From Escherichia phage EcS1, in the sequence record NC_055721.1: DNA of 64,000 bases. One strand, given 5' to 3'. Made by a program: the position numbers and the translations under genes. The notes beneath the pieces are model-generated. The model searched no databases and was not told where the DNA came from. It saw only the letters and a list, made by a program, of their open reading frames with translations. Below are positions 3,692 through 47,623 of this stretch, one piece after another; position 1 is the first letter of the stretch, and the number at the start of each line of letters is the position of its first letter.

Positions 3692-4022
3692 TGATGATGT
3701 CCCAAATCTGTTTACGAGTTGTCTGCCAGCCTACAGTAATGATTTCATCATTAAATGGCTGACGTAAGATAGTACGAGATTTTTCAATAGCGTACTTATA
3801 TGCAGCAAAATTATTTTCCAGAACAGCAGCCTGAGCATGGAGGTTCAGACGGTCAAGTTCACGTTTGTTCTTACGATAAATCTTTTGAGCTTTAGCATTA
3901 GCTTCTACGCGAGCAGCTTCTTGCATACGAGCAATTTCTTCTTGATATTCATTTTCGCTATGTTCAAGTTCTTCACGAAATGCTTCACCTGGTGCTAGGT
4001 CATTCTGATATTCTGGAGTCAT
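3669..4022 (-). CDS. hypothetical protein
   Basis: 117-aa co-oriented ORF. Confidence 0.45.
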   Translation of the reverse strand: MTPEYQNDLAPGEAFREELEHSENEYQEEIARMQEAARVEANAKAQKIYRKNKRELDRLNLHAQAAVLENNFAAYKYAIEKSRTILRQPFNDEIITVGWQTTRKQIWDIINAHSSKV

Positions 4023-4024
4023 AA

Positions 4025-4252
4025 TTATTCCGGTTTATAATTTAATTCAACGAAGAAACCTTCGTCATTAACTTGGTACTCGTAAGAAAGGACTCCCGAT
4101 TCGGTCGTTATTTCTTCTATACCAGGATTCTTGGGGTCAATAATAATAGGTAACTTTTCGATATCCCTTAGATACATTTTAAGTAAATAAGGAATAACGT
4201 TTTGGTCACCTACTTCTTCTAGGAACCCATTGAGGTTAAGCTTGAGCCTCAT
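4025..4252 (-). CDS. hypothetical protein
   Basis: ORF-track 4025..4330 trimmed to an internal Met to reduce overlap with gp55 3' end. Confidence 0.35.
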
Positions 4253-4769
4253 ATAAAAAATCCAATGCATTATCATCTTCAAGATCAAGTGCTTTATCTG
4301 ACCCTGGCACTTTAACAAGAGATGATTCATACTGCGTCATTTTATCGTAGATGTCCTGAATAAAGGTTTCATCTGCTAACGCAACCATATCATCGTCACG
4401 TGCGTCATACACATTGTGAACGAAATAGCTGTATTTCTTCGCGACTTCACGACGTTCTTTTTTGATACGTTGAACAAAGGCGTTGAAACAAGCCTGGGTT
4501 ATATACGCATGTGGGTTGTTGTACTTAGTTTCGTCGAAGTTTTTAAGACCTTTAATTGCAGCCTCAATACCGTCTTCAATCATTTCTTGCTTCCAGGATT
4601 GGGTATATCCAGAGAAGTTAAAACGTTTTGAAAGACCTTCTGAAATAAGCATAATAGCTTCACCAATCTTATCTGTCATTCGAACTAACGAATCAGGTTC
4701 GAGAGCACATCGTCTTTTCCAATCACAGATTTCAAGATAAAGCTCTTTATTATTTACATAGTTTGCCAT
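4236..4769 (-). CDS. 55: late-transcription sigma factor gp55
   Basis: 177 aa; near-identical blocks to T4 gp55 as recalled ([60 protein letters not shown]). Confidence 0.9.
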
Positions 4770-27912: not shown

Positions 27913-28506
27913 TTAGTTTGTACTGTCATACATACCTACTTTATCACACCAATGTTTTCTGCACAATGAAACATACTTATCATTACCACCCATTACTACT
28001 TGGGCTCCATCAATAACAGCATTACCTTCTTCATCGAGACGAGCTACCATTGTTGCTTTACGTCCGCAATGACAGACACCTTTAAGTTCTACTAACTTAT
28101 CGGCTACGGCTAACAATGCTTTAGAACCTTCGAACAGATCGCCACGGAAGTCAGTTCTGAGCCCGTAAGCCATCACAGGGACATCATATAAATCAACAAT
28201 ACGACACAGTTGGAACACCTGTTCAGCCATTAAGAACTGTGCTTCATCAATCAGAACACAATGAATATCTCGTTGAGCTTGAGCCCATTTAAAGAATTCA
28301 AGGATGTCCATATCACGTGTGATAATGTTAGCTTCTTGACGAAGACCAATGCGAGAAACAACTTCAGAGGCCGAATCACGATCATCTAAAGCAGGTTTCA
28401 TTACTAGCGTACCCATACCACGTTCTTTGTAGTTATGAGCTACCGAAAGAAGCGCAGTACTTTTACCAGCGTTCATTGATGCAAAATTAAAATAAAGTTG
28501 AGCCAT
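27913..28506 (-). CDS. tk: thymidine kinase
   Basis: 197 aa; P-loop NAGKST, C-terminal Zn-binding cysteines; T4 tk position. Confidence 0.9.
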   Translation of the reverse strand: MAQLYFNFASMNAGKSTALLSVAHNYKERGMGTLVMKPALDDRDSASEVVSRIGLRQEANIITRDMDILEFFKWAQAQRDIHCVLIDEAQFLMAEQVFQLCRIVDLYDVPVMAYGLRTDFRGDLFEGSKALLAVADKLVELKGVCHCGRKATMVARLDEEGNAVIDGAQVVMGGNDKYVSLCRKHWCDKVGMYDSTN

Positions 28507-29447: not shown

Positions 29448-29939
29448 TCAAATGGGTGTGGATAGTGTATTTTCATTAGGAGCCCAATCAACAATAACCA
29501 CGTCAATATTAGGTGTGAACATATTGATTAATGCTTCAACTTTAGTCCAATCACCACCTGCAATACCACATCCAATACGAGGCATATAGATTTGAGGAAT
29601 ACAAATCTGATTCTCGGCCCATTTGTTCAATTCTATCAAAGAATCTACTAATGCACCATAGCGTAAATCAGGCCCAGCATAATATTGAGTATAAAGATTA
29701 AAGCAAATATTTTCTTGCTTATTGAAGCGAGTGCTTAATACGGCTTTAGTAAAGGTACCAAGTTTTCGGATATCAGCAAAATCTGTATCTTTGTCAATAG
29801 CTTCAATAGGATAATAAGCTTTAGCTAATTGACCCGCTATGCCACCACCCATTGTATGGAAACAGTTACAGCCATGAGCGATATTTTTACCTGAAAGAAA
29901 CAAGGCGACGATGTCGCCTTTAATATATTTTGTAATCAT
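29448..29939 (-). CDS. macro-domain protein (ADP-ribose binding/processing)
   Basis: 163 aa; glycine-rich macro-type motifs HGCNCFHTMGGGIAGQL and RIGCGIAGGDW. Confidence 0.6.
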   Translation of the reverse strand: MITKYIKGDIVALFLSGKNIAHGCNCFHTMGGGIAGQLAKAYYPIEAIDKDTDFADIRKLGTFTKAVLSTRFNKQENICFNLYTQYYAGPDLRYGALVDSLIELNKWAENQICIPQIYMPRIGCGIAGGDWTKVEALINMFTPNIDVVIVDWAPNENTLSTPI

Positions 29940-40119: not shown

Positions 40120-40195
40120 TGGTGCTGAATGCAGGAATCGAACCCGCGACCTTCTCATTACAAGTGAGCTGCTCTACCTACTGAGCTAATTCAGC
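40120..40195 (-). tRNA. tRNA-Thr (anticodon UGU)
   Basis: 76 nt; perfect 7-bp acceptor stem, canonical D and T arms (TTCGATT), anticodon loop CTTGTAA, encoded CCA. Confidence 0.8.
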
Positions 40196-40199
40196 AATT

Positions 40200-40284
40200 T
40201 GGTGCATCGAGAGGGATTCGAACCCTCAATCCTCGCGGCGTGGCATTTTAAGTGCCATGTGTATACCAGTTCCACCATCGATGC
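40200..40284 (-). tRNA. tRNA-Leu (anticodon UAA)
   Basis: 85 nt class-II tRNA; anticodon arm TGGCA-CTTAAAA-TGCCA, T loop TTCGAAT, CCA encoded. Confidence 0.8.
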
Positions 40285-40288
40285 GAAT

Positions 40289-40364
40289 TGGTCGAGACAG
40301 TAGGGATCGAACCTACGACCTAGGACTTAGAAGGTCCTTGCTCTTCCGTCTGAGCTATGCCCCG
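40289..40364 (-). tRNA. tRNA-Arg (anticodon UCU)
   Basis: 76 nt; anticodon arm AGGAC-CTTCTAA-GTCCT, T loop TTCGATC, CCA encoded. Confidence 0.75.
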
Positions 40365-40537
40365 TCTTTGTATAAACGTTCTAAGTAAACATGCTCCATC
40401 GGTTTAACGATTTCGCCTTGTTTCAATAATTGTGTTTGAATAGGATTCAAATTATAAAATTTGATCACATCTCTGAGATCTTGTTCGCTATAATTAAAAG
40501 TTCCTACTTCTACTCCGATTTGCATAAGTATCCTTTT

Positions 40538-40624
40538 TGGAGCTAGGAGTGAGATTCGAACTCACGAAAGCATAACGCTACTGGATTTGCAATCCAGCGC
40601 CTTTGACCACTCGGCAATCCTAGC
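40538..40624 (-). tRNA. class-II tRNA with anticodon GCA (Ser/Tyr-type architecture, Cys anticodon)
   Basis: 87 nt; perfect acceptor stem GCTAGGA/TCCTAGC, D arm GCC-GAGTGGTCAAA-GGC, anticodon arm CTGGA-TTGCAAA-TCCAG, long variable arm, T loop TTCGAAT, CCA. Confidence 0.65.
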
Positions 40625-40755
40625 AAATGTTCAGGTGGGAGTCGAACCCACACGATTGAAGCCTCTCATCGGGTTACCTCTTACTCAGCTGGGTGCTTAA
40701 ACCAGCGTTTCAAACAGAGTCCGCCAACATGTCTACCGATTCCATCACTGAACAA
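40625..40755 (-). ncRNA. tRNA-like structured RNA, about 130 nt (possible stable-RNA analogue)
   Basis: canonical T arm GTGGG-TTCGACT-CCCAC and 7-bp acceptor pairing, but the ends are about 130 nt apart and no standard anticodon arm was found. Confidence 0.3.
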
Positions 40756-40758
40756 TTT

Positions 40759-40983
40759 TTACATATCTACTTGACAAAACCAGTTCATTTCAAAATATTC
40801 ATCAAAATGTAATGCAGGTTCTACTTGACAATTTTCTTCTAATAAGACCAAATTTCTTCTAACAATAGGGTCTAATGACGTGATGGTCAAAGCACTATCA
40901 TGATAGTAAATCAGAACACGAAGCGAATCTGTATCAACTAAATACCGAACATTCATATCAGGATGTTTGTAGAGGTTAATCAT
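40759..40983 (-). CDS. hypothetical protein
   Basis: 74-aa ORF. Confidence 0.35.
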   Translation of the reverse strand: MINLYKHPDMNVRYLVDTDSLRVLIYYHDSALTITSLDPIVRRNLVLLEENCQVEPALHFDEYFEMNWFCQVDM

Positions 40984-40989
40984 AACATT

Positions 40990-41436
40990 TTATCCTTGAA
41001 GCATTTCACGAACACGATAAAGATTAGAACAGAATTCTTGTTCAGTTAGAACAGTTTCATTCTTTTTATTCTTACCCATGCTATGAGTTAATGTTGAGTT
41101 ACGCGTAGCTAGGAGTGCTCTCTTGAATCCTTCATTCAAAGCCAGAGAATCATATGCTCGCTGAATTAAAGACGTATAGGCTATACTTTGACGTAAAATA
41201 GGGACACCTTTCCAGTACAACGTTTGGGTGCGCCACCAGTTCTTTTTCTTACCTTTGAACTTAGCTTTCTTACCAACTAATGTACAGACATGCTCTTGCA
41301 TTTCTACTGAAGAAAACTTCAATGATTGCAAGAAACCTTCCATTGATGCACACTGTACTCCATCAATTTCGAAAGCATGAGGAGCAAAGTTACTTAATGC
41401 ACAACTTGGGTACATTGAACCTGAACCAATATCCAT
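40990..41436 (-). CDS. NADAR (YbiA-like) domain protein
   Basis: 148 aa; SNFAPHAFEIDG...SMEGFLQSLKF, KRALLATRN, NLYRVREML align with remembered YbiA/NADAR blocks. Confidence 0.7.
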   Translation of the reverse strand: MDIGSGSMYPSCALSNFAPHAFEIDGVQCASMEGFLQSLKFSSVEMQEHVCTLVGKKAKFKGKKKNWWRTQTLYWKGVPILRQSIAYTSLIQRAYDSLALNEGFKRALLATRNSTLTHSMGKNKKNETVLTEQEFCSNLYRVREMLQG

Positions 41437-41527
41437 TATCCATTATTCCTTTGATGATAATAACAGCGTTTACATCGATACCAACCGAAATAATCTTTGT
41501 AGATTATTCTATTGCAGTTGGGACATT

Positions 41528-41782
41528 TCATGCTGGTTCTACCTCAGTCATTGTTGTCCGTTTCAGAACCACACAACCTTCTATTTCAGGGTCTTTCTTA
41601 ACCAGAACTCGTCCAGTAGGCGAAATAAGGCCAGTAATATGATTCAGAGCTTTAGCAGCATCATTGAAGCCATCAGCTTGCATAATCGTTCCGAATGAGA
41701 ACCCTTGATAGTGATTACTAAACTCGTAATAAGCGTATTCTTCACGAATAGGGCAATAAATCACATAATCAACATTCAGCAT
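41528..41782 (-). CDS. hypothetical protein
   Basis: 84-aa ORF. Confidence 0.35.
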   Translation of the reverse strand: MLNVDYVIYCPIREEYAYYEFSNHYQGFSFGTIMQADGFNDAAKALNHITGLISPTGRVLVKKDPEIEGCVVLKRTTMTEVEPA

Positions 41783-42114
41783 AAGTCACCTACACATTGG
41801 AGAGCACGATGGTGTGACCATATTTCTAAAGTCTTTTCGTTGGCTTTATTAATTCGACGAAGGTCATTTAAATTACCTTTAACATATAACCCAAGTTCAC
41901 TTAACAAATGATCGATAGTGAAATAAGAAATATCTCGCAGTGGAGCATAACGGAACTTAATGAAGTGCCATTCATCAAACTCGTTTTTGGTAAACGCATA
42001 ATCAGCATGCATCATGAGTTCGCGAATCGTTTCACGCATCAAAAAGACATTACCGTGATAAGAATCATTTATAGCAACAATATGTGGACCTACACCTAGA
42101 TAGATACGAGACAT
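41776..42114 (-). CDS. hypothetical protein
   Basis: 112-aa ORF. Confidence 0.45.
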   Translation of the reverse strand: MSRIYLGVGPHIVAINDSYHGNVFLMRETIRELMMHADYAFTKNEFDEWHFIKFRYAPLRDISYFTIDHLLSELGLYVKGNLNDLRRINKANEKTLEIWSHHRALQCVGDLC

Positions 42115-42324
42115 AATATTTTCCTCAGTCAGTTTATTCTACATCATATTCAACTACAAGCACTTCTTCATAATCTTCAGGATTAAGAGTTTTAATGTAG
42201 TCTTCTGCTTTTTCTTTACTCGATAGAATCTTTAATGGCTTTGAATATTCATCATATCCATATTCACAGTTAAACTCTGACATAACAACTGCGTATACTA
42301 TCATAATATTTTCCTCATTTGAAT

Positions 42325-42401
42325 TGGTGGCCCTTGTCGGAGTCTAACCGACCTTACACCAGTTATGAGCTGGGCACTTTCACACGAAAGTATAAAGGGC
42401 C
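42325..42401 (-). tRNA. tRNA-like element with CAU anticodon (Met or Ile2), atypical T loop
   Basis: 77 nt; perfect acceptor GGCCCTT/AAGGGCC, anticodon loop CTCATAA, T arm GTCGG-TTAGACT-CCGAC, CCA encoded; 5' end overlaps a terminator hairpin. Confidence 0.5.
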
Positions 42402-42434
42402 ATTATTAAAATATTTTTACTTTAATAATGGCCC
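42397..42434 (-). terminator. rho-independent terminator (14-bp perfect inverted repeat)
   Basis: GGGCCATTATTAAA ... TTTAATAATGGCCC with 10-nt loop; on minus strand followed by TTTATAC; downstream of 42459..42743. Confidence 0.55.
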
Positions 42435-42458
42435 TCTCCGAAGAGAGGACAGAGGGTA

Positions 42459-42743
42459 TTACTTACACATGAACTTAGCAACTTCATCGAAGCTGTTCAA
42501 GATGTAATAAGACTTAGGCGCACTGTATTCAGTAGGTTTAATAGTAATACGTACACGACCATGCAAGTCTTCAACTAATCCAACAACAGCACTTGAACGA
42601 ACAACAGCACGAGCAGTTGTAGGAATCTGACCGGTAGTCAGAGCTTGAAGTTCGGTGTCAATAAGGATTACAATACGTTCAGACATTTTAATTTCCATTT
42701 GTTGTTTCGATGTAGTAATAATAACATGATTATTTTGAAGCAT
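42459..42743 (-). CDS. hypothetical protein
   Basis: 94-aa ORF downstream of promoter copy 4. Confidence 0.4.
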   Translation of the reverse strand: MLQNNHVIITTSKQQMEIKMSERIVILIDTELQALTTGQIPTTARAVVRSSAVVGLVEDLHGRVRITIKPTEYSAPKSYYILNSFDEVAKFMCK

Positions 42744-42750
42744 AACCGTT
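42703..42750 (-). promoter_or_regulatory. early-type promoter-like element (repeat copy 4)
   Basis: minus strand ATGCTTCA...TGtTATTATTACT...CATCGAAACAA. Confidence 0.45.
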
Positions 42751-42801
42751 CAGAGACTAAAAAGCCCAGTACAAGATTTCTCTTGCCCGGGCGTCATTAT
42801 T

Positions 42802-42876
42802 TGGAGCAGCATATCGGACTCGAACCGATGTCGACTGGGTGGAAGCCAGTAATATTAACCACTATACGAATGCTGC
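42802..42876 (-). tRNA. tRNA-Gly (anticodon UCC)
   Basis: 75 nt; anticodon arm ACTGG-CTTCCAC-CCAGT, T arm ATCGG-TTCGAGT-CCGAT, CCA. Confidence 0.75.
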
Positions 42877-42877
42877 A

Positions 42878-42951
42878 TGGCAGGCCCTGTAGGAATCGAA
42901 CCCACGTCGCTGAGGTTGGAGCTCAGAATGATACCACTATACCAAGGACCC
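42878..42951 (-). tRNA. tRNA-Trp (anticodon CCA)
   Basis: 74 nt; anticodon arm CTGAG-CTCCAAC-CTCAG, T loop TTCGATT; D stem weak. Confidence 0.6.
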
Positions 42952-43262
42952 GTTGATTGTACGGAACGCCTGGATTCGAACCAGGTTACAAAGCAGTTGA
43001 CGCTCCTTTGTATTTTGTAAGGCCATCATCTCGACCATATCCGAACGTTTCGTCAAAAACGCTACTCGGCTTATGGCAAAGACAAATCCTCGAACCGATA
43101 ATTGGTGGGAGCTGTTGGTAACGATCCAACCTCTCGAGCTCTTCAGGCAAGCGCTAATCCGTCTCAGCTAAACTCCCAGATCCACAAGAACTTTACAAGC
43201 ATTGCGCTTAACCTTTTCAGGAAGTTAGGGTACTATTTCTAGTCTGTGGTTATCCCTATTTT
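42952..43262 (-). ncRNA. structured non-coding region inside tRNA cluster (tRNA-like fragments)
   Basis: contains a canonical T arm CCTGG-TTCGAAT-CCAGG at about 42967-42985 and several hairpins but no complete cloverleaf was found by eye. Confidence 0.25.
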
Positions 43263-43338
43263 TGGTGGGAATAGCTGGATTTGAACCAGCGACCTATCGC
43301 TTATCGGGCGAGTGCTCTACCAACTGAGCTATATTCCC
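43263..43338 (-). tRNA. tRNA-Ile (anticodon GAU)
   Basis: 76 nt; GGGAATA acceptor, GCTCAGTTGGTAGAGC D arm, anticodon loop CCGATAA, T loop TTCAAAT, CCA. Confidence 0.8.
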
Positions 43339-43344
43339 ATAATT

Positions 43345-43421
43345 TGGTCTCCATATAAGGATTTGAACCTTAGACCTCCTGGCCCCAAACCAGGCGCTCT
43401 ACCAAACTGAGCTACACGGAG
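43345..43421 (-). tRNA. tRNA-Pro (anticodon UGG)
   Basis: 77 nt; anticodon arm CCTGG-TTTGGGG-CCAGG, T loop TTCAAAT, CCA. Confidence 0.75.
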
Positions 43422-43422
43422 A

Positions 43423-43668
43423 TTAATTTATATCAAATATGGTGCCATCTTTCCACATCATTGCGAAAAGAGGTGAAACTTTTGTTAAACGGTGTGCAAC
43501 TTTAACTTGACGGCTAAAACCTTCAATTTGAGCACCATAACCATTTATATCTAATACAAGACCAATATGAACTTTGCCAATATCAGACATACCATTTGAA
43601 GGTAATCCAATCATGACATAATCGTTAACTTCGATTTGTTTACCATATTTGTCAAATAATATCTTCAT
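43423..43668 (-). CDS. hypothetical protein embedded in tRNA cluster
   Basis: 81-aa ORF between tRNA-Pro and tRNA-Ser. Confidence 0.35.
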   Translation of the reverse strand: MKILFDKYGKQIEVNDYVMIGLPSNGMSDIGKVHIGLVLDINGYGAQIEGFSRQVKVAHRLTKVSPLFAMMWKDGTIFDIN

Positions 43669-43693
43669 AATTATTTATTCACCATATTTTAAT

Positions 43694-43787
43694 TGGAGGA
43701 AGCTGTGAGATTTGAACTCACGGAACCTGTCCCCAGGACCTCTAGTTTTCAAGACTAGTGCAATAAACCAGACTCTGCCAAGCTTCC
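43694..43787 (-). tRNA. tRNA-Ser (anticodon UGA)
   Basis: 94 nt class-II; anticodon arm CTAGT-CTTGAAA-ACTAG, long variable arm, T loop TTCAAAT, CCA. Confidence 0.75.
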
Positions 43788-43791
43788 GAAT

Positions 43792-43867
43792 TGGGGTGAC
43801 CTGTGGAATTCGAATCCACGACTACGAGAATCACAATCTCGAGTTCTACCAACTGAACTAAGGCCAC
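43792..43867 (-). tRNA. tRNA-His (anticodon GUG)
   Basis: 76 nt; anticodon arm CGAGA-TTGTGAT-TCTCG, T loop TTCGAAT, discriminator C, CCA. Confidence 0.7.
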
Positions 43868-43967
43868 ATCAATATTCACTCAGCCACTTCGTGCGGACCT
43901 GTCTCGATATTACGTGTAGTGGATTAGCTAGTTCACACCACTATATCGTCTAGAATGAATATTAATT

Positions 43968-44043
43968 TGGCTAGAGCGCTTGGATTCGAACCAAGGAATA
44001 CCAGAATCAAAATCTGGTGTCGTAACCGCTTGACTACGCTCTA
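43968..44043 (-). tRNA. tRNA-Gln (anticodon UUG)
   Basis: 76 nt; anticodon arm CCAGA-TTTTGAT-TCTGG, T loop TTCGAAT, CCA. Confidence 0.75.
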
Positions 44044-44045
44044 AT

Positions 44046-44121
44046 TGGAGGCGAGTGATGGAATCGAACCATCGCGTAAAGGGATATGAACCCTTTATTC
44101 TACCACTGAAGTTAACTCGCT
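44046..44121 (-). tRNA. tRNA-Met (anticodon CAU), initiator-like
   Basis: 76 nt; anticodon stem ends in three consecutive G-C pairs (AAGGG/CCCTT), loop TTCATAT, position 1-72 unpaired (A-C), CCA. Confidence 0.65.
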
Positions 44122-44248
44122 ATTGTCCGGGTTCTCGAAGTAAAAACAAGTAGCTTGATGTAGAACACATAAAGTGGGAACAACTCACTTCATCTCCTAG
44201 CATTATTGTATGGAGACTCAAACTCATCTTCAAGAACTGCTTCGTATT

Positions 44249-44325
44249 TGGCGGACGTGCTTGGACTCGAACCAAGGACCTATCGCTTAACAGGCGACCG
44301 CTCTAACCAACTGAGCTACACATCC
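44249..44325 (-). tRNA. tRNA-Asn (anticodon GUU)
   Basis: 77 nt; anticodon loop CTGTTAA, T loop TTCGAGT, CCA. Confidence 0.75.
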
Positions 44326-44329
44326 AAAA

Positions 44330-44461
44330 TTTACTTTCAGGGTTACTCGAAGCTCTCAAACCTTCCGGAAAGTCGAATAAGCATCTCATCCTCTCAGAAT
44401 CCCGTGCACAGGAAAAATCTTTATTAGGAGGAGACTAAATCAATATAACCCTGAAAGTAAA
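44330..44461. repeat. 16-bp perfect inverted repeat flanking a 100-nt spacer
   Basis: TTTACTTTCAGGGTTA at 44330-44345 and TAACCCTGAAAGTAAA at 44446-44461. Confidence 0.8.
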
Positions 44462-44475
44462 CTTACTTTCGAATT

Positions 44476-44552
44476 TGGTGGGACATCATGGACTCGAACC
44501 ATGGACACCCGGATTAAAAGTCCGGTGCTCTAACCAACTGAGCTAATATCCC
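44476..44552 (-). tRNA. tRNA-Lys (anticodon UUU)
   Basis: 77 nt; anticodon arm CCGGA-CTTTTAA-TCCGG, T loop TTCGAGT, CCA. Confidence 0.8.
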
Positions 44553-45015
44553 ATAGATATTTATCTATAAATCTCTTAGCTTGAGTATGACTTATATTTA
44601 AACTTTTACTAAACTTGGTTAATGCACCTCGTTTAGTAAAATCTATTAAATTATAAGCTTCAATTCTAGAAGCAATTTCTTCTTCAGACAAAACCAAAGC
44701 ATGGTTTTCTGAAATCTTTTTACGAGATTCTGTTGTATGTGACATACCAGTAAAACCAAGAGTAGGTTTTAGTCTACCATTAGCTTTAGCGTCTTGTGCA
44801 TTTTGTTTATTTGTCGCACAATAAATGTTTTCTAATGAATAAGGACCTATATCGCCTTTACGACACATGCAATAATCCAAACTTGCTTTACCACGTAAAT
44901 GATATTTACCTGTTGATTTCCACCAAGTAAACCACTCATCAAAAGTTAGATTAAATTCAATACCACGAGCTTTGGCATGAACTTTTTGCATACGGTACTT
45001 TTCATAATCTTCCAT
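44530..45015 (-). CDS. homing-endonuclease-like protein (NUMOD3-like motif, C-terminal DNA-binding region)
   Basis: start set to ATG at 45013-45015 (MEDYEKY...); GFTGMSHTTESRKKISENH resembles NUMOD3; 3' end reads through the 5' part of tRNA-Lys. Confidence 0.4.
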   Translation of the reverse strand: MEDYEKYRMQKVHAKARGIEFNLTFDEWFTWWKSTGKYHLRGKASLDYCMCRKGDIGPYSLENIYCATNKQNAQDAKANGRLKPTLGFTGMSHTTESRKKISENHALVLSEEEIASRIEAYNLIDFTKRGALTKFSKSLNISHTQAKRFIDKYLWDISSVG

Positions 45016-45030
45016 ACAACTCTCACAAAT

Positions 45031-45106
45031 TGGCAGTGCCGACGGGATTCGAACCCGCATGGTCTCCCGTGACAGGGGAGTATATTACCAAGTCTACCAC
45101 GGCACT
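45031..45106 (-). tRNA. tRNA-Asp (anticodon GUC)
   Basis: 76 nt; anticodon arm CTCCC-CTGTCAC-GGGAG, T loop TTCGAAT, CCA. Confidence 0.75.
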
Positions 45107-45112
45107 ATTGTT

Positions 45113-45187
45113 TGGTACTCTGTAGGAGAATTGAACTCCTCTTCCCAGGTTGAAAACCTGGTGTCCTAACCGATAGACGAACAGAGC
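45113..45187 (-). tRNA. tRNA-Glu (anticodon UUC)
   Basis: 75 nt; D arm TCGTCTATCGGTTAGGACACC, anticodon arm CCAGG-TTTTCAA-CCTGG, CCA. Confidence 0.75.
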
Positions 45188-45195
45188 TAAGAATT

Positions 45196-45284
45196 TGGTG
45201 CACCGAGAAGGACTCGAACCTACGAAGCTCATTACAAGCAGGAGATTTACAGTCTCCACCCTTTGCCACTCGGGTCATCGATGC
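45196..45284 (-). tRNA. tRNA-Tyr (anticodon GUA)
   Basis: about 89 nt class-II; anticodon arm GGAGA-CTGTAAA-TCTCC, long variable arm, T loop TTCGAGT, CCA. Confidence 0.7.
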
Positions 45285-45394
45285 ATTGAAGACGTTATAT
45301 TTTATTTATATCATCGAAATGATATCGTCTTCGGCATGACTTGCTTCATTAGCAAGTCCATGTATTAATAATAACACTTAAAACTTAAAGCATA

Positions 45395-45586
45395 TTACAA
45401 ATCGCCACTTCCAACAACAGTGAATGAAGAATCAACAATTTGGTATTCACCACCACAACTGTAGCCTGATTCATTCTGTTTGGCTTCTACGGTCTTCATA
45501 GCTTCTTCAAGAGAATCGTATTCACCTTCAAGGTCGTTCAGCCCACCACGTGGGTAATAATTGTCCCACAAAAATAATTTATACAT
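45395..45586 (-). CDS. hypothetical protein
   Basis: trimmed ORF. Confidence 0.3.
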   Translation of the reverse strand: MYKLFLWDNYYPRGGLNDLEGEYDSLEEAMKTVEAKQNESGYSCGGEYQIVDSSFTVVGSGDL

Positions 45587-45788
45587 CTTCACGTTTCCAA
45601 GACATATGAATAACAAACAGACCAACAAGTAAAGCTAACATAAAACTACCAATATTTACTAAAGTAGCACCAGCAGCCATACCCATCATAGCGTAGTCCC
45701 ACTTGCCAAGTTCATCTTTAACTTCGTAGTTCTTTTTGAACCAAGTTTTAGCTTTCAAGAACAGTTCATTAACTTTTTGCATTTGCAT
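45579..45788 (-). CDS. small membrane protein
   Basis: trimmed ORF; hydrophobic helix. Confidence 0.35.
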   Translation of the reverse strand: MQMQKVNELFLKAKTWFKKNYEVKDELGKWDYAMMGMAAGATLVNIGSFMLALLVGLFVIHMSWKREDV

Positions 45789-45960
45789 TTGCAATTTTAT
45801 CCATAATGAATGATACAATACCAGATGCAAATGATGCACCTAGCACAATGATTGTTTCTTTAGTATCGATAACTCCAAGACTTCCAGCGAAGATTGCAGT
45901 ACCGACAGCTCCTAATGTTACTACACTTGCAATGTTACGAATCAGTTCACAACGTTTCAT
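45769..45960 (-). CDS. small membrane protein
   Basis: trimmed ORF; glycine-rich hydrophobic helices. Confidence 0.35.
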   Translation of the reverse strand: MKRCELIRNIASVVTLGAVGTAIFAGSLGVIDTKETIIVLGASFASGIVSFIMDKIANANAKS

Positions 45961-46021
45961 TTTACATCTCCATTTAGTTTGTAGGAGTACTATACCATGT
46001 TCAAATGGAGATGTAAACACC

Positions 46022-46933
<912 letters not shown>

Positions 46934-46934
<1 letters not shown>

Positions 46935-47623
46935 TATATTACCTTTTTAATTTGTTCAAATAGTTGTTCTAAAGTACCAGTGTTCATTATAACACTGTCA
47001 CCAGGAGAAATTGGAAGACCTGCTTCAGTTATGTGCTGGTCTGTATTTTGATCGGTTTCAGGACGAACTACATGAATAATCGTAGCACCCATCGCCCTGA
47101 GCGAATCAATTTCGTGCACTTGACGGACATCAGGAATAACATAATAGTTATAACCTGAATAGAAGTTATCAAGATAGTTTTCTGTAAATAATTTAACCCA
47201 ATACATACGGTCGAGTTTATTAACAATCACATCAGTCCCAAGGGTCTGCATGAGACGACGGATTGTCCATTCCTCTACATTATTATTTAATACAGAAGAA
47301 ATCGCATCTTGGACTTTACTATCATATCGAGTGTATCTGAAATTGAAAACTTCATGAAGGACTTCAATACATTCATGCAGAAGAACACACACATCTTCAT
47401 TGTTTATAGGAAGGACCATTTCACGATCTATGCCAGTTCCTTCCCAATCACAATATAGTAACTGATGTAGTTCATTGATACCAGAGCGTTCCCAGGCACA
47501 CCTAAGAGCATACTTAATAGGCATAGCAAGTTGCCATTTCAAAGAACTAAAATTTTCAGTTATGTAATCAGCCGTAGTATCTTTACCACTACGTTTTTTA
47601 CCCACAATCACTAAGAGTTTCAT
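46934..47623 (-). CDS. 1: deoxynucleoside monophosphate kinase (gp1)
   Basis: 229 aa; N-terminal P-loop VGKKRSGKDTTADYI as recalled for T4 gp1. Confidence 0.8.

Follow-up and report, generated by a model that had tools for sequence, protein, structure and literature searches.

A putative AdfN-type guanine-ADP-ribose DNA glycohydrolase encoded within the tRNA cluster of Escherichia phage EcS1

Introduction

What is the role of a small, free-standing NADAR-like protein encoded between the tRNA genes of a T4-like phage? The question is raised by KNT65_gp293 of Escherichia phage EcS1 (Kagamiyamavirus, Tevenvirinae), which is annotated as 'hypothetical protein' and is 100% identical to the product of the gene studied here. 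A sequence-only reading of the locus had recognised NADAR/DUF1768 blocks in this product and proposed that it counters DarT1-type DNA ADP-ribosylating systems or, alternatively, reverses a modification made by the phage itself. Here, we follow up these proposals in a window of EcS1 DNA (the whole stretch analysed, 64,000 nucleotides of record NC_055721.1) and by comparison with related phages.

In phage T4, gene 30.3 was renamed adfN, for 'anti-DarT factor NADAR', by Johannesman et al. (Nat Commun 2025, PMC11825919). The AlphaFold model of AdfN-T4 has a NADAR fold, and the purified protein frees DarT1-modified DNA of ADP-ribose, which its E36A variant does not (PMC11825919). Activity is lost upon the E36A exchange, the K43A variant rescues only partially, and the allele of RB69, which misses the C-terminal helix due to a frameshift, is non-functional; a truncation that mimics this allele impairs rescue by AdfN-T4 (PMC11825919). 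T4 without adfN is sensitised to DarTG1. AdfN-T4 acts specifically on guanine and not thymine adducts, and has no effect on DarTG2 (PMC11825919). In line with this, a T4 transposon screen (HIDEN-SEQ preprint) found adfN insertions to be lost only on DarTG1 hosts (10.1101/2025.11.20.689424).

Hydrolysis of guanine-ADP-ribose (G-ADPr) in vitro by a phage gp30.3 NADAR was also described in Toxins in 2024 (PMC11125620), and the structural basis of NADARs is represented by PDB entries 8BAT and 8BAU (PMC11543638). DarTG1 protection and guanine de-ADP-ribosylation have been reported for the T4 (and T2) alleles (PMC11825919, PMC11125620, 10.1101/2025.11.20.689424). In uninfected cells AdfN-T4 fails to detoxify DarT1, and its rescue of phages other than T-even ones is poor; for these reasons a T-even cofactor is suspected (PMC11825919). 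The presence of adfN homologues across the Tevenvirinae was already remarked upon by the same authors (PMC11825919).

Results

The gene is intact and under purifying selection

The ORF listing shows an ATG-initiated reading frame from 41436 to 40990 on the minus strand, which encodes 148 residues (Table 1). All motif strings quoted in the sequence-only reading are present in the translation, where they occupy residues 15-19 (SNFAP), 22-26 (FEIDG), 35-41 (FLQSLKF), 105-113 (KRALLATRN) and 138-146 (NLYRVREML). The start codon overlaps the stop codon of an upstream 31-aa ORF in the sequence TAATG, which suggests that the two genes may be translationally coupled.

Comparison with the orthologue of Erwinia phage Virsaitis27 yields 36 nucleotide and 6 amino-acid differences and a dN/dS of 0.045, indicative of strong purifying selection. 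Together with a highly significant family match (PF08010, see below) and 4,666 homologues at E<=1e-3, this value argues against a chance ORF. A pseudogene was likewise ruled out, given the dN/dS, the full length of the gene and the presence of every key residue.

Table 1. Features of the adfN-like gene of EcS1 and of its surroundings in the window
Feature	Position	Strand	Remarks
adfN-like gene (T4 gene 30.3 orthologue)	40990..41436, including stop codon	minus	product 148 aa, phage-type NADAR ADP-ribosylglycohydrolase (predicted)
AGGA Shine-Dalgarno-like motif	41447..41450	minus	10 nt 5' of the adfN-like ATG, read from sequence
Glu33 codon	41338..41340	minus	corresponds to T4 AdfN catalytic E36 and E. 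coli C7 DarG1 E88
Lys40 codon	41317..41319	minus	corresponds to T4 AdfN catalytic K43 and E. coli C7 DarG1 K95
His118 codon, in 'LTHSMG'	41083..41085	minus	corresponds to T4 H123 in 'LKHSMA'; mark of phage gp30.3-type NADARs
C-terminal alpha-helix, residues 132-147	40996..41043	minus	model pLDDT 92-93; aligned through to the end of T4 AdfN
Lys-rich loop GKKAKFKGKKKNWW, residues 55-68	41233..41274	minus	from alignment; T4 counterpart GLAAQQAGRSYARAQ
tRNA group Thr/Leu/Arg/Cys	40120-40624	minus	ARAGORN
tRNA group Gly/Trp...Tyr	42802-45284	minus	ARAGORN
Acb1 gene (anti-CBASS nuclease; T4 57B)	46231-46686	minus	151 aa, PF23474 E=3.5e-58
Gene 1 (dNMP kinase)	46934-47623		
Tk.4/AdfM-like macrodomain gene	29448-29939	minus	163 aa; PF01661 23 bits (cut-off 22); 52% identity to T4 Tk.4, E=2e-54
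Thymidine kinase gene	~27949-28506		71% identity to T4 tk

The product belongs to the phage gp30.3 branch of the NADAR superfamily

The 148-aa protein matches PF08010 (Phage_30_3, 'Bacteriophage protein GP30.3') across profile positions 2-138 of 138, with an E-value of 1.5e-57 and a score of 193.7 bits, where the cut-off is 36 bits. It also matches PHROG 652. BLASTP aligns it with T4 gp30.3 over the full length at 42% identity (E=1e-33), the T4 protein measuring 152 aa. Judged by sequence, the EcS1 protein is a full-length orthologue of T4 gp30.3/AdfN.

The sequence-only reading had staked its family assignment on PF08719, the Pfam NADAR profile. This profile gave no match to the protein at E<=0.1, though PF08010 matches so strongly, and the recognition of NADAR/DUF1768 blocks thus holds at the level of the superfamily but not for PF08719 itself. 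We attribute the missing match to the partition made by Pfam, in which the phage branch is modelled apart as PF08010. As an effect of this partition, it is no evidence against membership of the NADAR superfamily. Moreover, 27 of 134 diverse PF08010-family representatives match PF08719 as well (best E=6e-07), and at sequence level the two families appear to be bridged by these members.

Two further profiles gave weak matches. TIGR02464, which describes YbiA-type 'riboflavin biosynthesis intermediates N-glycosidase', stayed below threshold (E=0.0014; 18.9 bits with a cut-off of 73.7 bits) and covered residues 11-57 only. The PADLOC candidate-defence model PDC-M42C matched at E=9e-5.

Searching the PDB with the single protein sequence returned nothing relevant, and the same was true for a 28-sequence profile, which yielded a spurious 47-aa knottin alone (E=0.38). 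Kinship to solved NADARs is therefore visible only at the level of the fold. Structure prediction, which the sequence-only reading had named as a check, produced a NADAR/YbiA-like alpha+beta fold that comprises the core only, with E. coli YbiA as its top single structural match.

Catalytic residues and the C-terminal helix are retained

In both a pairwise alignment and an alignment across seven genera, E33, K40 and H118 of the EcS1 protein align with E36, K43 and H123 of T4. All three are invariant among 28 aligned close relatives and throughout the seven-genus alignment, which includes T4 and Aeh1. Among the 134 cluster representatives from the exhaustive search, Glu occupies the E33 position in 133, Lys the K40 position in 132 and His the H118 position in 129. 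The Glu-to-Lys spacing amounts to 7 residues in the EcS1 protein, T4 and C7. Conservation of the catalytic residues, on which the sequence-only reading had made its proposal depend, is thereby borne out for all of E33, K40 and H118.

The residue on the last strand follows a published rule, being Glu in YbiA, Asp in DarT1-associated NADARs and His in phage gp30.3 proteins (PMC11125620, PMC11543638). The C-terminal helix (residues 132-147) is intact in the EcS1 protein, as seen from the alignment to the T4 C-terminus and from model pLDDT values >90. As far as alignment and model can tell, every residue and segment known to matter in T4 AdfN is kept.

A distinctive element is the loop formed by residues 55-68, GKKAKFKGKKKNWW, in which 7 of 14 residues are Lys or Arg; the family median is 4. 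It is kept in the relatives that carry the gene in their tRNA cluster (see below) and recognisable in Aeh1, and reads GLAAQQAGRSYARAQ in T4. The loop is the part of the model with the lowest confidence (pLDDT 68-79), and we tentatively consider it a possible nucleic-acid contact.

The gene is widespread and has moved into the tRNA cluster in a sublineage

Homologues were found by tblastn in 1,508 phage records, with a single matching place in all but one, and the exhaustive search gathered 1,100 clusters at E<=1e-3. The EcS1 protein is 64-97% identical to its homologues in a sublineage made up of Kagamiyamavirus, Winklervirus, Jiaodavirus, Biquartavirus and Tegunavirus, and the identity of this sublineage to T4 AdfN is about 40%. 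The T4 gene is flanked by 30.4 and 30.2 and adjoins the DNA ligase gene, and that of the distant Aeh1 is located in the 31-30.2 region. A position within the tRNA cluster, with gene 1 and 57B upstream, is shared by EcS1, Virsaitis27 (Winklervirus), phiR1-RT (Tegunavirus), KP1 (Jiaodavirus) and Aeromonas phage 31.2 (Biquartavirus). The gene directly precedes tRNA-Arg in most of the four relatives; in EcS1 the two are separated by a 74-aa ORF, tRNA-Cys and a 56-aa ORF.

Across six loci compared, the small ORFs that flank the gene show 46-80% identity or no match, whereas the NADAR gene is 96.6% identical to that of Virsaitis27. This difference indicates a retained gene in a hyperplastic region. 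Two neighbours are without counterpart in the six related loci, namely the 31-aa ORF (41436-41531, minus strand), which encodes a CxxC...CxxC mini zinc-ribbon, and the 74-aa ORF (phrog_27825; 40759-40983, minus strand) directly downstream of the NADAR gene. The immediate flanks are therefore mosaic.

Several further observations concern the family at large. In phiR1-RT (HE956709.1), gp30.3 is annotated as a 105-aa CDS that begins at an internal ATG (4136), and a full ORF of 150 aa spans 4001-4453. Since the reading frame from 4001 holds the catalytic Glu/Lys region, the annotated protein is probably a truncated mis-annotation. By megablast, Tenacibaculum phage pT24 (LC168164.1) shares 79.6% nucleotide identity over 145 nt between its positions 44965-45108 and 41206-41350 of the window. 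This stretch covers the N-terminal core of the gene, and the similarity is high for so distant a host (Bacteroidota). Among the cluster representatives, gp30.3-type NADARs occur fused to Tpt1/KptA RNA 2'-phosphotransferase, ASCH, DUF6939, NT5C nucleotidase, histidine phosphatase and LRR domains, and one representative of 480 aa has three NADAR stretches in tandem. Some of these fusions may have arisen artificially in gene calling on metagenomic contigs.

Neighbouring genes include further T4-type counter-defence functions

ARAGORN predicted 17 tRNA genes, encoded on the same strand as the NADAR gene and arranged in two groups that flank it, in agreement with the placement between tRNA clusters given by the sequence-only reading. 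A divergent 18th tRNA may be located at 43106-43177 (minus strand), between tRNA-Trp and tRNA-Ile, where Rfam gives 36 bits at a gathering score of 29 and ARAGORN makes no call. The tRNA-Cys (GCA) at 40538-40624 (minus strand) measures 87 nt, an unusual length for tRNA-Cys that implies a long variable arm, and the closest relatives examined have no tRNA at that position. The gap between tRNA-Lys and tRNA-Asp is filled by a 176-aa ORF (44530-45060, minus strand) that overlaps both by about 20-30 nt and has no Pfam match.

The T4 genes 1, 3, 5, 57B and tk are all present in the window, as befits a T4-like phage, the setting in which AdfN-T4 is fully active. Gene 1 is followed by the gene for Acb1, which shares the strand of the NADAR gene and is located about 4.8 kb upstream of it. 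A macrodomain gene resembles T4 Tk.4, lately named AdfM, an anti-DarTG2 factor (10.1101/2025.11.20.689424). From these assignments, the window is predicted to carry T4-type counter-defence genes against CBASS, DarTG2 and DarTG1.

Pfam and PHROG profiles detected no ART or DarT domain in the ORFs that flank the NADAR gene. The NADAR gene, with no ADP-ribosyltransferase gene next to it, is an orphan like its T4 counterpart. A role as DarG1 antitoxin of a phage-borne toxin-antitoxin pair was rejected, there being no DarT neighbour.

A sigma-70 promoter scan of 40300-43000 returned 8 promoter-like sites with 8.0 expected, and a terminator scan of the same interval returned 0. MotA-box-like motifs (TATGCTT[TC]A...TATTAT) on the minus strand, which are consensus matches only, are found at 45394, ahead of the first tRNA, and at 42744, ~1.3 kb upstream of the NADAR gene. 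At 45310 (minus strand), the late-promoter motif TATAAATA is likewise a consensus match only, and the search for MotA and late-promoter motifs gave a further consensus match at 41005. Of the six strict MotA matches on the minus strand of the 64-kb window, three fall within 40900-46800.

Discussion

A probable orphan antitoxin against DarTG1

Taken together, we hypothesise that the EcS1 protein is, with high probability, a guanine-ADP-ribose DNA glycohydrolase of the AdfN type, which undoes the DarT1 modification of phage DNA in the course of infection. Upon infection of a DarTG1 host, the DarT1 toxin would ADP-ribosylate guanine in the phage DNA and block its replication. The phage enzyme would then hydrolyse the guanine-ADP-ribose bond via Glu33, Lys40 and His118, and replication could resume on the cleaned DNA, so that the enzyme would act as an 'orphan antitoxin'. 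By analogy with the experiments on the T4 orthologue, we infer guanine-ADPr on DNA as its substrate and DarTG1 as its target, and a second T-even factor might be required for full activity.

The sequence-only reading of a free-standing NADAR as a counter-defence enzyme against DarT1-type systems coincides with the published role of the T4 orthologue, and orthology, the Glu/Lys/His residues, the helix and the fold are all kept in EcS1. The idea is right, but it had already been published, as family, chemistry and role became known between 2023 and 2025.

Comparison with known NADAR proteins

The overall design of the EcS1 protein is that of T4 AdfN. Both have a core-only NADAR fold, the catalytic Glu and Lys, the phage-type His and the C-terminal helix, and both are encoded by a single copy in a Tevenvirinae genome. 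They differ in genomic position and loop: whereas the T4 gene is found near the ligase gene and has the GLAAQQAGRSYARAQ loop, the EcS1 gene is found in the tRNA cluster and has the GKKAKFKGKKKNWW loop. Given this other locus, the 42% identity and the Lys-rich loop, the EcS1 enzyme could differ from T4 AdfN in the range of substrates that it accepts or in how far it depends on a phage cofactor.

When comparing the EcS1 protein with DarG1 (E. coli C7; G. lovleyi, PDB 8BAT), there are several differences. The EcS1 gene has no adjacent DarT1 toxin gene, and its product lacks the N-terminal beta-sheet/helix extension of DarG1, measuring 148 instead of 219 aa with 132 residues aligned (DarG1 features: PMC11543638, PMC12945103). 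Where DarG1 has a catalytic Asp (D171 in C7), the EcS1 protein has His118. DarG1 rescues DarT1 toxicity in uninfected cells, unlike T4 AdfN (PMC11825919).

E. coli YbiA (PDB 2B3W) and the PF08719 NADAR domain differ from the EcS1 protein, which has His118 in place of the Glu of YbiA and no PF08719 match. Proteins of the YbiA type have housekeeping roles (riboflavin intermediates, swarming) and confer no DarT1 protection in vivo (PMC11125620).

A functional parallel exists in AdfN-Bas32 and AdfN-Bas60 of T5-like and Vequintavirinae phages, which are also free-standing phage NADARs that counter DarTG1 through guanine de-ADP-ribosylation (PMC11825919). However, these belong to other NADAR clades that were acquired independently, and they are autonomous in uninfected cells, in contrast to the gp30.3 clade, as tested with T4 (PMC11825919).

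Alternative substrates

DNA need not be the sole substrate, as the in vitro activity of the T4 NADAR extends to G-ADPr on RNA (PMC11833690), but not to C-ADPr (PMC12945103). The enzyme might accordingly serve mainly to reverse guanine ADP-ribosylation of RNA, be it phage tRNAs or host translation RNAs, and so counter an RNA-targeting ADP-ribosyltransferase rather than DarT1. Hydrolysis of G-ADPr on RNA by T4 NADAR (PMC11833690, PMC12945103), the consistent position of the sublineage gene within the tRNA cluster just upstream of tRNA-Arg, and the one representative in which a gp30.3-type NADAR is joined to the RNA 2'-phosphotransferase Tpt1/KptA are in line with this, and RNA-targeting systems were raised as a possibility by the AdfN authors (PMC11825919). 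Even so, we regard it as improbable that RNA is the main target. T4 NADAR is less active than DarG1 on RNA (PMC11833690), DNA de-modification accounts for what is seen in vivo with the orthologue (PMC11825919, 10.1101/2025.11.20.689424), and the literature cited here contains no guanine-specific RNA ADP-ribosylating defence of enterobacteria. Co-location with tRNAs carries little weight, because small ORFs pile up in the hyperplastic tRNA region of T4-like phages.

A soluble substrate is less probable still. In this reading the enzyme would degrade molecules derived from ADP-ribose, for instance NAD-derived immune signals or toxic nucleotides, instead of adducts on macromolecules, as was proposed for phage NADARs on contextual grounds in a survey of viral NAD/ADPr systems (PMC9503650). 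YbiA-branch NADARs do cleave N-glycosidic ribosyl bonds in small molecules, and Acb1, encoded upstream on the same strand, degrades cyclic-nucleotide signals. Yet the survey (PMC9503650) is older than the experiments, and those on T4 gp30.3 directly show action on ADP-ribosylated DNA and protection against DarTG1 (PMC11825919, PMC11125620, 10.1101/2025.11.20.689424); in the literature cited, no small-molecule substrate is given for the gp30.3 branch.

The sequence-only reading had offered as its second option that the enzyme reverses a modification by the phage's own ADP-ribosyltransferases, of the Alt, ModA or ModB type. The ADP-ribosyltransferases of T4 modify arginine of host proteins (ModB also joins RNA to proteins) and not guanine bases, which counts against this option. 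Several T4-like phages are said to co-express viral NADARs and phage ADP-ribosyltransferases as early genes (PMC9503650), but all NADARs assayed are guanine-specific base glycohydrolases (some also act on cytidine), with T4 NADAR acting on G-ADPr only (PMC11825919, PMC11125620, PMC12945103). With no ADP-ribosyltransferase gene adjacent in the window either, this option found no support, and we deem it highly improbable.

Finally, a housekeeping function of the YbiA type, in which an N-glycosidase detoxifies riboflavin-pathway intermediates, as hinted at by the weak TIGR02464 match and by YbiA being the best single structural match, was rejected as the least credible of these functions, given His118 in place of the family-defining Glu, a TIGR02464 score far under the cut-off that reflects the N-terminal motif only, and a published phylogeny that sets gp30.3 proteins nearest to DarG1 NADARs (PMC11825919).

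Implications

With an AdfN-type role against DarTG1 as the preferred reading, a 'hypothetical protein' of EcS1 and its relatives becomes a confidently assignable counter-defence gene. EcS1 would thus encode at least three T4-type anti-defence enzymes (AdfN-like, AdfM-like and Acb1) in one 64-kb stretch. Phage annotation can benefit from this, as can the prediction of host range on DarTG-carrying strains for phages that include therapy candidates.

There is, in addition, an outside chance that the tRNA-cluster sublineage is functionally distinct from T4 AdfN. Nucleic-acid binding by its conserved Lys-rich loop could render the enzyme independent of the suspected T-even cofactor, or widen its activity to ADP-ribosylated RNA or tRNA. 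In that case, the conserved place of the gene among the tRNA genes would point to the translation apparatus being protected along with DNA. The comparison of this relocated, Lys-rich sublineage with the T4 allele bears on why AdfN-T4 needs the context of a T-even infection.
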